From the IMG/VR virus record IMGVR_UViG_2778261162_000005: DNA of 36,774 nucleotides. One strand, given 5' to 3'. Under the pieces are notes generated by a model. That model was not told the DNA's origin. It searched no databases and worked only from the letters and a program-made list of their open reading frames with translations. The DNA is from a virus (taxonomy: Duplodnaviria; Heunggongvirae; Uroviricota; Caudoviricetes). Shown here piece after piece: positions 700-34,217 of this stretch (position 1 is its first letter; every line of letters starts with the position of its first letter). A program made the position numbers and the translations under genes.

Positions 700-834
700 A
701 TACTAAACATTAGTTAAATCATGGCTTTTGCCATTTTTATACTTTTTTTACACCCCGCCCGCAGATTTTTGCGAAATCTTTGCAGCCAGAATTCTACCCT
801 TCCGGTATCACTTTTAGGCCACTGGAGGTGCACT
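700..834 (+). promoter_or_regulatory. kdpFABC promoter region with putative KdpE operator
   Basis: AT-rich region directly upstream of kdpF containing T-rich direct repeats CATTTTTATACTTTTTTTTACACCCCGCCCG (about 733-765), which matches my recollection of the KdpE binding site. Confidence 0.45.
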
Positions 835-924
835 GTGAGTGCAGGCGTGATAACCGGCGTATTGCTGGTGTTTTTATTACTGGGTTATCTGGTTTATGCC
901 CTGATCAATGCGGAGGCGTTCTGA
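835..924 (+). CDS. kdpF: Potassium-transporting ATPase subunit F
   Basis: GTG start at 835; 29-aa hydrophobic peptide (M)[28 protein letters not shown]; stop overlaps kdpA start (TGATG). Confidence 0.8.
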
Positions 925-2132
925 TGGCTGCGCAAGGGTTCTTACTGATCGCCACGTTTTTACTGGTGTTAATGGTGCTGGCGCGTCCTTTAGGCAGCGG
1001 GCTGGCGCGGCTGATTAATGACATTCCTCTTCCCGGTACAACGGGCGTTGAGCGCGTACTTTTTCGCGCACTTGGCGTCTCTGACCGTGAGATGAACTGG
1101 AAGCAATATCTTTGTGCCATTCTCGGCCTGAACATGCTGGGGCTGGCGGTGCTGTTTTTTATGTTGCTCGGTCAGCACTATCTGCCGCTTAATCCACAGC
1201 AGTTGCCGGGGCTGTCGTGGGATCTGGCGCTGAATACCGCCGTCAGCTTTGTCACGAATACCAACTGGCAATCTTACAGCGGTGAAACCACGTTGAGCTA
1301 TTTCAGCCAGATGGCTGGCTTAACGGTGCAAAACTTTCTTTCTGCCGCCAGCGGGATTGCGGTGATTTTTGCCCTCATCCGTGCGTTTACCCGCCAGAGC
1401 ATGAGCACACTCGGGAATGCCTGGGTCGATCTGCTACGCATCACGTTATGGGTGCTCGTCCCTGTGGCGTTGTTGATCGCACTGTTTTTTATTCAACAAG
1501 GTGCGCTGCAAAACTTTCAGCCTTATCAGGCTGTGAATACCGTTGAAGGAGCGCAACAGCTGTTACCCATGGGGCCTGTAGCTTCTCAGGAAGCGATCAA
1601 GATGCTCGGTACTAACGGCGGTGGCTTCTTTAATGCCAACTCGTCGCATCCGTTTGAAAACCCAACCGCACTGACCAACTTCGTGCAGATGCTGGCGATC
1701 TTCTTGATCCCAACGGCGCTGTGCTTTGCCTTTGGTGAAGTGACGGGCGATCGCCGCCAGGGGCGCATGTTGCTGTGGGCGATGTCAGTGATTTTTGTCA
1801 TCTGCGTAGGCGTGGTGATGTGGGCAGAAGTTCAGGGTAATCCTCATCTGCTGGCGCTCGGCGCAGACAGCAGCATCAATATGGAAGGTAAAGAGAGCCG
1901 TTTCGGCGTGCTGGTCAGTAGCCTGTTTGCGGTCGTGACTACGGCGGCTTCCTGTGGCGCGGTGATTGCGATGCATGATTCGTTTACCGCTCTCGGTGGC
2001 ATGGTGCCGATGTGGCTGATGCAAATTGGTGAAGTGGTGTTCGGCGGTGTCGGTTCTGGTCTTTACGGCATGATGCTGTTTGTCCTGCTGGCGGTGTTTA
2101 TTGCCGGGCTGATGATTGGTCGTACACCGTGA
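924..2132 (+). pseudogene. kdpA: kdpA (potassium-transporting ATPase subunit A) truncated by prophage insertion; 402 codons retained
   Basis: ATG at 924 overlapping kdpF stop; multi-pass membrane protein [16 protein letters not shown]...MIGRTP then TGA at 2130. Intact KdpA is about 557 aa (recalled) and continues EYLGKK after GRTP; here non-kdp sequence follows. Confidence 0.85.
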
Positions 2133-2136
2133 TCAG

Positions 2137-2176
2137 ACATGAGATAAATGAAGGGGGATCTGTGAGATAAATAACG
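2137..2176. repeat. Terminal direct repeats, putative transposase-binding sites at prophage end
   Basis: ACATGAGATAAATGAAG (2137-2153) and TCTGTGAGATAAATAAC (2160-2176) share TGAGATAAAT.A, spaced 23 bp, beginning 8 nt inside an element end that starts TG. Confidence 0.5.
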
Positions 2177-2325
2177 AATTGGAGTGGGTTAACATGGGTT
2201 CTGGTGAACAGAACTGAAATTCTTTTCCGCTATACGATAGATAAGTCGGGCATTGAAATCATCCTTCCTGGCAACTTAGAATCGAGTTTGCTGAAACATG
2301 ACCCGCAACAAAAAGGATGATTCCA

Positions 2326-2487
2326 ATGACTACTCAAAACAATAAGCATGATAGCCTGGATTACTCAGAAAAGCCCAAAAGCAAGCACATCGTGACGTTC
2401 GAGCGCGATTCCGGTAGAAAAGGAGAATCGTCTTCCTCTGCCAATAAAACCACTATGCCGGCAGCCCCTGCCCCAGGGAAAAAATAA
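2326..2487 (+). CDS. Hypothetical small hydrophilic protein (53 aa)
   Basis: ATG at 2326 with AAGGA 7 nt upstream; MTTQNNKHDSLDYSEKPKSKHIVTFERDSGRKGESSSSANKTTMPAAPAPGKK; below the ORF-track length cutoff; low-complexity, so coding status uncertain. Confidence 0.25.
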   Translation: MTTQNNKHDSLDYSEKPKSKHIVTFERDSGRKGESSSSANKTTMPAAPAPGKK

Positions 2488-2490
2488 ACA

Positions 2491-3123
2491 TCATTCATCG
2501 TTCGTTGCACGAACGCGCCTGATCTCCACTCTGGCAATCTGATCTGCTGGAATATAGGTTGCCAGAGCTCCCCAGTACTTATCAACCACGCCTTTATACT
2601 CTTCCCATTCGTTACTGCCTGAAGGGCTGCTGTGCGTGACGTAAAGAACCATATCGCCTTTATTCCCCAGGGTAAACGGACCGTTAGGCCACTCTTCAAA
2701 GTTCCCTGGCAGCCGTGACATCATACCGGAACCATCGCGAAGAATCACTCTGACCTCGGTAACGCTGAAGCCTGTTTGATCAAACATTGCCTGCCATGCT
2801 GAGCTGGTATCGTCAGACCATGAAATATCATTATTCCACAGTAATCTGTACATCCATTTGCGACCGTACCTGCGCCACCACGCACCGCATGTAACGGCAC
2901 ACAGAAGTGCTGGTGGTGTTGCCAGCCAGGCATTCAGACCTGCCCACATAACAGCCTGGTAAGCCATCATTGCTGTCAGGCCAAAAATCAGCGAAGAAAA
3001 AGTCACCTCAATGGGCTTGTGGTGATCCTTCAGTCCCACATTCGCAATAAAATACCCAATATAGCCACTGGTCAGGGTCACCAGTGTTGCCCATGGCAGA
3101 TTTAACAACGAAACGTCAAACAT
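2491..3123 (-). CDS. Membrane protein with about 3 N-terminal TM helices and a soluble C-terminal domain; unknown function
   Basis: Start taken at internal ATG 3123 (MFDVSLLNLPWATL...) because GGAGA precedes it; hydrophobic N-terminal about 100 aa, soluble C-terminal about 110 aa; lies downstream of the early-operon terminator. Confidence 0.6.
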   Translation of the reverse strand: MFDVSLLNLPWATLVTLTSGYIGYFIANVGLKDHHKPIEVTFSSLIFGLTAMMAYQAVMWAGLNAWLATPPALLCAVTCGAWWRRYGRKWMYRLLWNNDISWSDDTSSAWQAMFDQTGFSVTEVRVILRDGSGMMSRLPGNFEEWPNGPFTLGNKGDMVLYVTHSSPSGSNEWEEYKGVVDKYWGALATYIPADQIARVEIRRVRATNDE

Positions 3124-3161
3124 ATTTTCTCCCTGCATCCTGAATACTAAAGAGAGAGCAT

Positions 3162-3198
3162 AAAAAAAGCACGGTAAGGGGTCTACCGTGCTTTTATA
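3162..3198 (-). terminator. Rho-independent terminator ending the early operon after mor
   Basis: Read on the minus strand: GCACGGTA-loop-TACCGTGC followed by TTTTTTTATG; plus-strand side has TTTTAT as well. Confidence 0.6.
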
Positions 3199-3237
3199 CA
3201 ATAAGGAGATTTTTGAAAGGACTTTAACAAGCAGGAA

Positions 3238-3636
3238 TTATCTGGATTTGTTAACGTCTTTCGTCTCCTCTGGCAGATCTTCATCAAACAACCTGCCCTG
3301 CATCCGATCCAGTTCTTCTTTTCTGACCCGCTTAACCACGCTGTAGACCCACTGAAGCGAAACACCAAACTTGCGGGCCAGTTCGTGGTGGTTGCGTCCG
3401 TTAAACTCCCTGAAGATTTCCCGGTCGCGCTGACTGACCTTCCATACCATGCCCATCGGGAAATAAACGTTTTGCCCGCCCCAGACCTGCATCATTCGGT
3501 TCGCGACGGCCTGACCAATCTGGTCGGCAATTGCGGGCTCAATATCAATAATCTCGCGAACGGTCTCAGAGGTATGCTGTGCCAGCTCCACCAGGAGTTC
3601 CGGCCCTTTACTTCGAAACTGATTCAGGTCGCTCAT
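3238..3636 (-). CDS. mor: Mor/C-family transcriptional activator
   Basis: 132 aa; block QNVYFPMG...RDREIFREFNGRNHHELARKFGVSLQWVYSVVKR matches the recalled Mor pattern (VYIP.G, FNGRN, ELA..YGVS, VY..I.R). Confidence 0.7.
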   Translation of the reverse strand: MSDLNQFRSKGPELLVELAQHTSETVREIIDIEPAIADQIGQAVANRMMQVWGGQNVYFPMGMVWKVSQRDREIFREFNGRNHHELARKFGVSLQWVYSVVKRVRKEELDRMQGRLFDEDLPEETKDVNKSR

Positions 3637-4060
3637 GTTTTACTCCCGCAGCTCTGTGCTGCCACTTCTTCAGTTTCTCAATAACACTGCTTGCCTGTTC
3701 AGTATTGAGCCAGCGCAGGGCGCTGATGCCCGTTTCCCGCTTGATCCACCGCGCTAATGCATTTTCTGAACGGTCACGAACAATGCCGGCAGCAGCCATT
3801 TCAAGCCATAGCGCACGGATTTTCCTGGACTGCGGATGGTTATCCAGCGGTAAACCGGAGCTGGCTTTTCCGGCAGGCTTAACGCGAAAGCCTTTCCTTT
3901 TCATGGATTCCAGCACGCAGTTTAGTTGTGTGGTATCCATTCCTTTGGTTGAGGCTTTACCGGTCAGCCCCTGTAACATCTGGCGGTAGGTGTCTTCATC
4001 CATACCCAGTTCATTACGGGCAATATGAATGAGCTGGATAAGACGTTGTTTAGTCATCAT
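3608..4060 (-). CDS. gemA: GemA-like protein (Mu gp16 / DUF1018 family)
   Basis: Start at ATG 4060 (MMTKQRL...) with AGGAG 5 nt upstream; LIQLIHIARNELGMDEDTYRQMLQGLTGKAS pattern typical of Mu gp16-like proteins; immediately upstream of mor as in Mu. Confidence 0.6.
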   Translation of the reverse strand: MMTKQRLIQLIHIARNELGMDEDTYRQMLQGLTGKASTKGMDTTQLNCVLESMKRKGFRVKPAGKASSGLPLDNHPQSRKIRALWLEMAAAGIVRDRSENALARWIKRETGISALRWLNTEQASSVIEKLKKWQHRAAGVKHERPESVSK

Positions 4061-8265: not shown

Positions 8266-10035
8266 TTAGTTGCCGTTAACAATGCTGATAACGCTGCTGC
8301 GGGCCGGCGTGGTCAGCGTGGCCATGACTTCATCCAGTGCAGCTTCCGGTACGCCGTCCGGGTACTGTGCCGTTAACTGGCGGTAATGTTCCGGCGTCCA
8401 GGTAAGGCCGTTGGCGCTGAACTTCCCGCGCAGGGCTTTCGCGGCCTCCACATGAGTCATGGGACGCTGTTCAGTGCGCGGTCCGCGTACGTCAGAGGCC
8501 TGACCTCGCTTCGGCATATAGGCCGGAAGTGTGGCGTCATCAATATGTTTATACGGGTCAAGCCGCCCGCCGAACGGCAGCGCCTTCGCCTTGCGTGCGG
8601 CAGCTGCATCTGCGGCGTTGTCTGTACCGGTGACCAGCGCTTCGGTTTCTTTTGCCGCCGTCTGTGCCGGTGTTTCCGGCAGGGCTTTGTAACTTTCGCC
8701 AAATACCGCCGCGCCTTCAGCAAAGCCAAACTCGTTCTTTCTGACCTCTTCGACCAGGAAGAACGTCTCGTGGCCGTCCTCACCGGTCAGAACCACCTGT
8801 GCCACATCGCTGCGCCACGGGTTACGGGTAATCATCAGTTTTTCACCGACCAGTACGCCCGGTACCGTTGATACGTCAAATTCAGTGCCCCGGAACGAGA
8901 CACGAAGTTTTGGCGTGACTTTGCGGAGTTCTGGTGCCGCCACAGCCAGTTCACGGCATACCTCAACGGAAGGCGCTTTTTTCAGCTGCTCAGCAGTAAT
9001 CTTCAGCCAGATATCCGTGCGGGTTTTACCGTGGCGGCTGTGAACAGCCGTGGCGTTAAAGTGGCTGCGCCATTTCGCGGCCAGCGCGTTGAGTTCTTCC
9101 AGACTGTGAACCGGCCGGAACTTCAGACCCGGCTCCAGCTTGCGTTCGATAATGTCACGCGCCTTTTCCACCTGTCCGGTGGCGCGGGCGTTATGCGGCT
9201 TGTGCGCTATCAGGTCGATGCCCAGTGAGCGACACATGTTTTTCGTCATACCCGCGGTGTTTGCCGAGCCGGGGTCGAGATAGAGTATTTTCGGCACGCC
9301 GTGCAGCACGTCTGCGCCGCCACGCTCCTGCATGGCGTTGATAAGCACAGAACACAGGTTCTCACCGGATTCCGCCCCCGTCACATACTCAACGTAAATC
9401 CAGCCGCTGGCATGGTCGGTAATCTCGTAACTCCACACGCGGTCACTGGCGATACGGGCAAGGTTAGCGGGCTTGTTCTTGTAGAACTTCGCGCTGTCCA
9501 TCACCTGCAGCCCTTTATGTCCATTGCTCAGGTAGTAAAGCGTGCAGAGTGAGGCGTCAATCTGCCAGACATGATTGGGATGCAGACTGGCCACTTCGGT
9601 ATGTGGTGCAGGGGCATCCAGTTGTTCCGGGTGCAGGCCATAGTTACGCAGGGCACGGCTGATGGCATCTTCAGACAACGGGAAAAACTCACCGGTGGTT
9701 TCATCTGTTCTGCCTGCGGTGATAAAGCCGTTAGCCCGCAGGGTTTCCACTGCATCTGCGATGGAATAGAGACGCTTACCGTTCTTGCGGGTGGCCTCAC
9801 GCAGTGTGGCAGATATCAGCGCGGCTTCGTCGCGGGTCAGGGCGCTGCGCCCGGCATCGGCGCGTTTTTTGCGTTTATCAGTCACAGAGACCTCCTTCAG
9901 CCTGCGCAGCAGAGTGGCGCGGGACATGCCAAGTTCAGCACAGGCAGCGTCGTATACTGCACCGCGTTTACCATGCCCCGCGTCACGTGCCGCGCGGGCG
10001 ACATAAACCAGTCGTTCAGTCAGGGCAGCATTCAT
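8266..10035 (-). CDS. DDE transposase (Mu A-like, rve integrase core)
   Basis: 589 aa; N-terminal HTH region; catalytic-core candidates HVWQIDAS, YLDPGSANT and GQVEKA (D, D, E); GGAGG upstream of ATG 10035. Confidence 0.8.
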   Translation of the reverse strand: MNAALTERLVYVARAARDAGHGKRGAVYDAACAELGMSRATLLRRLKEVSVTDKRKKRADAGRSALTRDEAALISATLREATRKNGKRLYSIADAVETLRANGFITAGRTDETTGEFFPLSEDAISRALRNYGLHPEQLDAPAPHTEVASLHPNHVWQIDASLCTLYYLSNGHKGLQVMDSAKFYKNKPANLARIASDRVWSYEITDHASGWIYVEYVTGAESGENLCSVLINAMQERGGADVLHGVPKILYLDPGSANTAGMTKNMCRSLGIDLIAHKPHNARATGQVEKARDIIERKLEPGLKFRPVHSLEELNALAAKWRSHFNATAVHSRHGKTRTDIWLKITAEQLKKAPSVEVCRELAVAAPELRKVTPKLRVSFRGTEFDVSTVPGVLVGEKLMITRNPWRSDVAQVVLTGEDGHETFFLVEEVRKNEFGFAEGAAVFGESYKALPETPAQTAAKETEALVTGTDNAADAAAARKAKALPFGGRLDPYKHIDDATLPAYMPKRGQASDVRGPRTEQRPMTHVEAAKALRGKFSANGLTWTPEHYRQLTAQYPDGVPEAALDEVMATLTTPARSSVISIVNGN

Positions 10036-14991: not shown

Positions 14992-15121
14992 ATCGTATTC
15001 TCCTCTGTGAATAATTCATCGTTTATCCTGCACACCCCGTATCCCCGGCTCTCTTAACGCGCTTTAAAATCCTTCGCGCCCTGTATTTGTGATGCTGTCT
15101 CCACCAGACAAGGAGACACAC

Positions 15122-28326: not shown

Positions 28327-28423
28327 CATCACAGGGGCTCCGGCCCCTTCTTCTTAATCTCCTTTAATATCCGTCACGTCCACCGCCAGACATACTGCTC
28401 TGAATTTACAAAGGAGTATGATC

Positions 28424-34161: not shown

Positions 34162-34217
34162 ACCTTCTTAAACGCCTTTAATATCGGCGCTTACTTCCCG
34201 GGGGCAATACTGCCTCC

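Follow-up and report, generated by a model that had tools for sequence, protein, structure and literature searches.

A portable convergent gene pair, encoding a membrane protein and a small proline-tailed partner, at the left terminus of a BcepMu-type prophage of Escherichia coli

Introduction

Just outside the early operon of a transposable prophage of Escherichia coli, beyond mor and hard against the left terminus of the element, lies a self-contained, horizontally mobile accessory cassette of two genes (2253-3195 of the window, by which we mean the whole 36,774-nucleotide stretch of IMG/VR virus record IMGVR_UViG_2778261162_000005). One gene encodes a membrane protein of 210 amino acids (aa) with a soluble C-terminal domain; the other, convergent with it and ending with a stop codon only 3 nt away, encodes a small hydrophilic protein of 53 aa. 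On the comparative evidence the two open reading frames (ORFs) form a conserved, portable two-gene unit and are not incidental convergent neighbours. Both proteins were known before only as hypothetical, DUF or PHROG entries, and no catalogued defence or toxin-antitoxin system matches the pair in sequence or architecture. We tentatively read the cassette as a conflict module, be it for defence, abortive infection (Abi), exclusion or something akin to toxin-antitoxin, while putting the chances of that reading somewhat short of even. An original prediction, made from the letters of the sequence alone, had described the large gene as a separately terminated accessory gene of the superinfection-exclusion or abortive-infection class, expressed from the lysogen; parts of it hold firmly, others do not, and the pairing of the two genes, on which much of what follows depends, is new.

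A conserved and portable pair

Beside every intact large gene examined there stood a small ORF, tail-to-tail with it, and the pair could be traced down to 27% identity as a barrel protein with three transmembrane (TM) helices accompanied by one to three small '..DY.E..PK..poly-Pro..K/R' proteins, in Enterobacterales and alpha-proteobacteria alike. At most loci the two stop codons are 0-18 nt apart or overlap, and in Serratia marcescens (L008) they are separated by 43 nt. Among Mu-like elements the pair occurs in E. coli (including L002 and L032), Klebsiella, two Serratia lineages, Citrobacter, Salmonella and Symbiopectobacterium. P2-like elements of E. coli and Salmonella carry a version in which the small ORF reads MTAQNNSQDDRQYSERPR...TPPPPPDTD, on a siphovirus-like contig it reads MTNSDNQRDHERDDPDYRENSVQPKAPSPAPAPPPPPPSR, and the pair is also found in Bradyrhizobium and Afipia. 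Small genes in tandem, two or three to a locus, accompany the large gene in Sphingobium, on a Rhodobacteraceae plasmid, in another prophage and in an integrative and conjugative element (ICE). Exceptions to the pairing are two decaying symbiont copies (L020, L021) and a frameshifted locus of E. coli (L032).

The company that the pair keeps is varied. In P2-like elements a 62%-identical homologue sits between the portal gene gpQ, which is followed by ogr, and gpA, an interval that is the main anti-phage hotspot of P2 (PMC9122126; PMC13586616). On two prophage-like contigs more distant copies stand among accessory genes within the stretch of tail genes, and on one of these contigs a HigB toxin gene is four genes off. 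A Rhizobium copy adjoins genes for PRTase+DprA, SMEK_N, radical SAM and AAA_15/21 ATPase proteins together with IS66; a Sphingobium copy adjoins an insertion sequence (IS), an integrase and an AAA/S8-peptidase pair; the ICE copy stands beside a fused MTase-Mrr enzyme (methyltransferase-Mrr), and another copy is carried on a 16.6-kb plasmid. A homologue at 29% identity in Synechococcus phage Ssp-JY41 (L036, record 1-744), the sole phage genome in the collection to hold one, lies at the very end of a 20-kb record and is close in sequence to the Rhodobacteraceae plasmid copy (L037).

Within E. coli itself the cassette comes and goes. The mor-gemA region is carried by 767 of 5,426 complete genomes and the whole cassette by 114 of those 767, while about 650 genomes have mor-gemA only, which bears out the original description of an accessory gene; about 85% of sibling prophages are without the cassette. 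In these cargo-less siblings the match breaks off within the last ~13 codons of mor (about 3278; megablast matches start at query 1179-1182), and in E8, one sibling read in detail, the stretch from mor to the prophage end is about 160 bp long and holds no gene. Strain CFS3292 carries a 73%-identical allele of the cassette with a hairpin and small ORF of its own. Like a moron, then, the cassette is present in some and absent from others of a set of similar phage genomes; as to transcription signals of its own, there is a conserved promoter for the small gene only, the large gene having a terminator upstream and no promoter that scores.

A membrane-tethered barrel

The 210-aa protein matches PHROG 12870 at E = 6e-134 over residues 1-210, its full length, and has at least 280 homologues, 72 of which came from a single-sequence search with E values down to 1e-140. 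An exhaustive profile search returned 521 representative clusters, nearly all of those listed being about 200-250 aa long and aligned over the full profile, and the family is compact and of a single architecture. An AlphaFold2 (AF2) model built on a 37-sequence alignment reached a predicted local distance difference test score (pLDDT) of 85.6 and placed TM helices at residues 11-27, 37-60 and 65-97, followed by a short helix and five strands, in agreement with the roughly three TM helices and soluble C-terminal domain of the original prediction. Lysines and arginines number none at the N-terminus, two (with two further histidines) in loop 1, none in loop 2 and five after the third helix, a distribution that points to an N terminus outside, in the periplasm, and a soluble domain in the cytoplasm (N-out/C-in). 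Twenty-four positions are invariant across the 37 aligned sequences, and they cluster in the first TM helix, in the conserved cytoplasmic loop ANVGLKDHHKPI, in an ISWSDD linker and in the C-terminal domain (PNGP, GD, YVTH, WG, IRR). Among the invariant residues are H35, D104, D157, Y161, H164 and R202.

The C-terminal domain is predicted to be a small beta-barrel of the Sm/SH3-like kind, with the N-terminal helix and five strongly bent antiparallel strands by which the Sm/LSm fold is recognised, as seen in the predicted monomer. The likeness has its limits: identity to Sm, LSm and Hfq barrels is only 4-18%, Sm1 and Sm2 motifs are not established, and the barrel here, known from a predicted monomer, is tethered to three TM helices.

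Searches against named families placed the protein only loosely. Pfam, NCBIfam and PADLOC profile searches with both proteins of the pair returned nothing useful (0 PADLOC-DB 2.0 families at E <= 1), a PDB sequence profile search gave chance matches only, and Rfam, run over 2050-3700, gave sub-threshold noise only. A fold search of BFVD found one uncharacterised full-length match together with insignificant holin-like ones. DUF6338 (PF19865), a family of uncharacterised membrane proteins, is of the same length class and predicted architecture; it gives weak matches in 17 of the 37 aligned homologues (best E = 1.4e-6), NCBI names some homologues 'DUF6338 family protein', and several bear precomputed PF19865 labels, although the window protein itself has zero Pfam match even at E <= 1. 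The 210-aa protein would seem to belong to a remote subfamily of DUF6338, itself a family without known function. The literature offered no functional account of DUF6338, which is mentioned only in passing and in an unrelated context, nor did the protein accessions or PHROG identifiers appear in it, and the pair was not found, with the terms tried, in the supplementary tables of PMC9122126. In RefSeq both genes are annotated 'hypothetical protein'. The exact sequences of both proteins nonetheless stand on at least 1000 public contigs, so the pair is directly testable.

A small partner under selection

The 53-aa protein (NCBI WP_001571575) matches PHROG 15726 at E = 1e-41 over residues 1-53 and is best described as disordered and hydrophilic with a basic, proline-rich tail. 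Its ORF has the good ribosome-binding site (RBS) that had been noted at the outset, AAGGA at 2313-2317, 8 nt upstream; what the first reading had missed was that the ORF is the conserved partner of its neighbour. Its relatives begin with MT or MS, contain the motifs D-Y-x-E/R and (Q/E/R/K)-P-K, and finish in a proline-rich tail whose last residue is K or R. In an alignment of ten enterobacterial orthologues guided by the protein sequences, differences at the first, second and third codon positions stood at 0.49/0.41/0.68 overall and 0.38/0.28/0.63 in the N-terminal part, and with that guided alignment the order 3 > 1 > 2 indicates that the small ORF is coding and under purifying selection. Polyproline runs, such as the tails of these proteins contain, are strong stalling motifs dependent on elongation factor P (EF-P).

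Two side observations concern variants of the small gene. The alpha-proteobacterial and metagenomic loci examined hold two or three copies in tandem, each ending PPPP(S/K)(K/R) (L031 2008-2339, L037 3762-4121, L039 7609-7829, L040 7614-7941). In L032, a single E. coli draft genome, the small ORF (about 3640-3800) is frameshifted after residue ~33 and yields a 39-aa product without the proline tail, beside an intact, 87%-identical large gene.

One promoter, one terminator and overlapping transcripts

The small gene is served by a sigma-70-type promoter (Table 1). With its spacer core CATCCTTC (ATTGAAAcCATCCTTC...ACTAGAAT), it is kept 32-39 nt before the MT/MN start at Mu-like loci, in a comparison that covered E. 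coli, Serratia, Citrobacter, Salmonella and Symbiopectobacterium and, by eye, Klebsiella (L010); in the P2-like context it reads TTGAAA-N18-TACAAT. Retention across both Mu-like and P2-like loci argues that the promoter belongs to the cassette and not to the Mu end.

Matters are otherwise for the large gene. A consensus scan of the - strand found no promoter for it, the gap between hairpin and ATG being only 41 nt, and a weak TAGACC-17-TATGCT (8/12) that overlaps the hairpin was noted by eye only. The strong terminator that had been predicted after mor is present: 42 nt past the mor stop a 13-pair stem (3195..3165) is followed on the - strand by TTTTTTT, and its RNA fold of -19.1 kcal/mol, against a shuffle mean of -5.5 (z = -6.4), was equalled by 0 of 200 shuffles. 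The large gene is thus separately terminated from the early operon, as had been claimed, but the further claim that it is independently transcribed in the lysogen is not supported: no recognisable promoter was found in the 41-nt gap, and a conserved one stands at the small ORF only.

The terminator scan also found nothing between the two convergent stop codons, so the 3' ends of the two transcripts must overlap, and since the small-gene promoter is directed at the 210-aa gene, its transcript must run antisense across that gene. How far it runs depends on where it ends. Past the small gene the + strand offers a single terminator candidate, again the hairpin at 3165-3195, which in that reading is followed by TTTTAT and could also end the small-gene transcript; were it to do so, the transcript would be antisense to the entire 210-aa gene.

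Eight Mu-like loci have an equivalent hairpin and T run 34-46 nt before the large gene, and the P2-like and siphovirus contexts have no such hairpin, the large gene there following directly on ogr or on an ANT/pRha region. The 33-nt hairpin, including its 7-nt loop GACCCCT, is identical in Serratia sp. Ag1 (L017, L018) and E. coli, whereas the sequence from hairpin to start codon is unrelated between the two; termination does not call for a conserved loop. Some E. coli alleles have an extra gene of 77-80 aa between mor and the hairpin (L002 4085-4318, L032 2663-2905), and Serratia marcescens (L008) has instead a gene of 95 aa, placed after the hairpin and before the large gene; these varying extra genes make the cargo site after mor itself modular.

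Table 1. Positions of the cassette and of its flanking features in the window
Feature	Position	Strand	Basis
Gene for 210-aa inner-membrane protein	2491-3123	-	ORF, PHROG 12870, alignment, AF2 model
Shine-Dalgarno sequence GGGAGAA of the 210-aa gene	3128-3134	-	Direct sequence reading, before ATG
53-aa hydrophilic protein (MTTQNNKHDSLDYSEKPKSK...PAAPAPGKK)	2326-2487	+	ORF, PHROG 15726, orthologues
Sigma-70-type promoter of the small gene, TTGAAA-N18-TAGAAT	2253-2282	+	10/12 consensus matches, directed into element
Intrinsic terminator, AAAAGCACGGTA-GACCCCT-TACCGTGCTTTT and T run	3158-3195	-	Terminator scan and RNA folding
mor	3238-3636	-	Last early-operon gene, context only, outside cassette; Pfam Mor, E = 1e-43
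Prophage left terminus	2131-2250	n/a	5'-TG start; end of kdpA frame and same end in other genomes

A conflict module as the tentative reading

The comparisons show how the cassette is built, that the pair is conserved, portable and accessory, and what company it keeps; the roles of the two proteins, a physical interaction between them and the timing of their expression are inferred. Portability, dispensability, residence in hotspots and a membrane protein as a plausible effector together make a conflict role the best single reading, if a hesitant one. In such a role the membrane protein would serve as effector, with membrane integrity or the entry of DNA as its target, and the constitutively made small partner would restrain or tune it, by way of a proline tail that might bind the putative barrel, by way of antisense or convergent transcription, or by both. 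A shift in this balance would bring the effector into action, for example when the prophage is induced and early-operon transcription reads through, or when another phage infects. Closest in situation is the cargo of the P2 gpA-gpQ interval (old, tin and the systems of Rousset et al. 2022): that hotspot holds a 62%-identical pair and a membrane effector would fit its pattern, yet no PADLOC model matches the pair. Superinfection exclusion or abortive infection, the class originally proposed, therefore gains from the company of the homologues (the P2 hotspot, PRTase+DprA, MTase-Mrr, HigB) and draws nothing from similarity to a known family; it is a reasonable guess at the level of a class and not a finding.

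A more specific version is a long shot. The pair might be an undescribed two-component anti-phage or Abi system, spreading in prophages (Mu-like, P2-like and siphovirus), ICEs and islands, in which the effector is gated through its barrel by the polyproline tail of the partner. It would amount to a bacterial switch of the SH3-PxxP type coupled to antisense transcription, and the partner could double as a sensor of infection, being lost on host shut-off or sensitive through its polyproline to EF-P.

Several observations count against a conflict role. Neither PADLOC nor Pfam, NCBIfam or PDB yielded a match to a known family of defence, exclusion or toxin-antitoxin proteins. The link to hotspots and islands is circumstantial and comes from about ten contexts, and the plasmid collection and the sequenced phage genomes hold hardly any members of the family, a scarcity that would be unusual for a classic addiction module. 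The frameshift in L032 may mean that the tail, or the whole partner, is dispensable, unless it is a sequencing error. Lastly, the large gene is without a recognisable promoter and follows a lytic-cycle activator, mor or ogr, in the Mu-like and P2-like contexts, an arrangement that a lytic role fits equally.

That lytic role, although we think it unlikely, is the strongest of the competing explanations. The 210-aa gene occupies the position of the Pm middle operon of Mu and could be expressed only after induction, by transcription that passes the terminator or that begins at a promoter which overlaps the hairpin and needs an activator, with a part in lysis timing, membrane remodelling or the exclusion of superinfecting phage during the burst. 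In Mu the middle operon (Pm, gp18, the membrane proteins gp19 and gp20, and C) likewise lies directly after mor and behind a hairpin that is both a predicted early terminator and a Mor-binding dyad, and membrane proteins are its first products. In the Mu record the predicted terminator (9179-9200) falls inside the annotated Mor-dependent Pm (9163-9233), and the published Mor site, at -51 to -36 (PMC4390567), maps onto the Mu hairpin when -57G and -54A are placed on the Mu sequence. The window has the same order of mor, hairpin with a G/C-rich loop, T7 run and gene; the centre of its dyad (3180) is about 43 nt upstream of the start inferred from TAGTAT (3149-3144), and the 210-aa gene has no sigma-70 -35 element. 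The P2-like homologue, for its part, begins 22-24 nt after ogr with no intervening terminator, and the TM part of the protein is weakly like class III holins in BFVD.

Set against these points, the hairpin dyad is unique in the whole window in a search allowing up to 3 mismatches, and CTTAA-N5-TTTAAWAT, a motif common to three late operons, is absent upstream of the 210-aa gene. The distance from hairpin to ATG ranges over 34-46 nt, and in L002 and L032 another gene intervenes between mor and hairpin. The pair also resides on an ICE, a plasmid and chromosomal islands without phage genes in the flanks examined, and most sibling prophages do without it. No search found homology between the cassette and gp18-20 of Mu, no C gene follows, and the cassette, dispensable here, occurs outside Mu-like phages as well. 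Nor does the phage want for lysis genes, having a holin and SLT cassette of its own, and the holin matches of the TM part are not significant (E > 0.02). A loosened pattern for the -10 region matches 3151-3142, but chance alone would give about 2 matches and the site was already known when the pattern was drawn up; we do not count it as evidence. The late motif itself lies shortly before three gene starts of the late region, at 15053-15070 (lysis region, near 15.1 kb), 28353-28370 (tail genes, near 28.4 kb) and 34167-34184 (a baseplate gene, near 34.2 kb), always on the + strand and preceded each time by a C/G-rich stretch; it may be the mark of late promoters that answer to the one Mor/C-family activator of this phage.

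An addiction module of type I-like design, in which the transcript from 2253-2282 works mainly as antisense RNA, silencing a toxic membrane protein, and so serves retention of the element rather than defence, seems to us quite unlikely. Its appeal lies in the layout: convergent genes whose stop codons are 3 nt apart, without a terminator in the gap, hence overlapping transcripts; a strong, conserved promoter on the antisense side; and a sole + strand terminator candidate, at 3165-3195, that would leave the whole 210-aa gene covered by antisense RNA. The type I prophage systems bsrG/SR4 and txpA/RatA of Bacillus subtilis, with their 3'-overlapping convergent transcripts, offer a parallel, for in them too a prophage membrane-protein gene is faced by a constitutively transcribed convergent unit and 3' overlap is unavoidable. 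Their toxins, however, are hydrophobic peptides of less than 60 aa and their antitoxins are RNAs, whereas the supposed toxin here is 210 aa long with a folded soluble domain and the supposed antitoxin is clearly a protein, its amino acids conserved down to alpha-proteobacteria; moreover, the module is almost absent from plasmids.

Least favoured, and distinctly improbable, is lysogenic conversion outside phage conflict, in which the cassette would bear on envelope physiology (stress tolerance or colonisation, for instance), or cargo that is simply neutral. The pair has no functional family assignment, it is common in commensal, uropathogenic and symbiont genomes, and copies are decaying in Arsenophonus, Pantoea persica, Phlomobacter and some Bradyrhizobium, all of which would suit such a role. 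It sits poorly with how strongly purifying selection has conserved both genes across classes (24 positions invariant among 37 sequences; 521 clusters) and with repeated, independent placement in mobile-element cargo and defence hotspots.

Four narrower assignments can be set aside. An MscS-type channel was considered for the sake of the topology and the Sm-like domain, but Pfam and PDB profiles show no MS_channel homology. As to a holin, the lysis genes (a putative holin and SLT) belong to the late region, some 12 kb off, and the BFVD holin matches have E values of 0.03-0.7 with low TM-scores. A type I toxin-antitoxin system of the 3'-overlap class does not have a 210-aa protein with a soluble domain and a protein-coding partner, and what it shares with this pair is only the convergent, overlapping layout; in a type II system the genes would not be convergent, and the small protein has no DNA-binding domain match.

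Were the conflict reading true, so that the cassette protects its host or kills on demand, it would be a compact (about 1 kb) and widespread addition to the defence repertoire, with an architecture that is not catalogued; it would give a function to a DUF6338-related family and to PHROGs 12870 and 15726, and would make the end of the early operon past mor in Mu-like phages a cargo site comparable to the gpA-gpQ hotspot of P2. Even without a role in defence, the convergent pair would be a clean case for studying the control of a membrane protein by a small protein and by antisense transcription.

The prophage and its left end

Up to nucleotide 2130 the window is host DNA from the E. coli chromosome, with ybfA, kdpF and, as far as codon 402, kdpA. 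The reading frame of this last gene is broken at 2130/2131 and the transposable prophage runs from 2131 (TGATCAGACATGAGATAAATGA...) onward, which confirms that the cassette stands at the prophage terminus in the last 1 kb of the element; its features all fall within the last 1,068 bp. The same end, TGATCAGACATGAGATAAATGA..., adjoins rstB in ABU 83972 (L001/L015) and malZ in CFS3292 (L002). In ABU 83972, a strain in which both ends can be read, the element is 37.7 kb long, runs from TG to CA and has ACAAAT on both flanks. Repeats near the left terminus, GAGATAAAT(G/A)A at 2142-2152 and 2165-2175 and GATAGATAAG at about 2237, are candidate transposase-binding sites. A 38-aa ORF at 2204-2320 is taken to be spurious because it has zero family matches and sits inside the terminal repeats.

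The layout of the prophage is of the BcepMu type and not of the Mu type. The early operon (transposase, ExeA-like B, gam, DUF2786, gemA and mor) is on the - strand and directed to the left end, and the lysis, head and P2-like tail genes run rightward from about 13.9 kb. A single Mor/C-family gene is annotated in the prophage; the mor product is 31% identical to Mor of Mu.

Some minor observations concern the surroundings of this end. Upstream of the interrupted kdpA (window 780-2130), kdpF (835-924) and ybfA (316-522, - strand) are intact; with kdpA cut after codon 402, the lysogen should be unable to take up K+ by the high-affinity Kdp system. Transcription that left the prophage end on the - strand would yield RNA antisense to kdpA. 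A 144-bp piece of the left end (window 2139-2283, from the terminal repeats to the -10 of the small-gene promoter) recurs at about 90% identity at 106 places on plasmids; on the one plasmid examined, p1ColV5155 (L038 2501-2644), it lies between a LysR pseudogene and IS remnants and is apparently the relic of an old insertion. In strain 504838 (L004 1108-3723) the IS66-family element ISCro1 is found about 240 bp past the mor stop, and in strain E8 (L003 3297-3554) an IS4 and fragments of cobalamin genes lie directly outside the prophage end.

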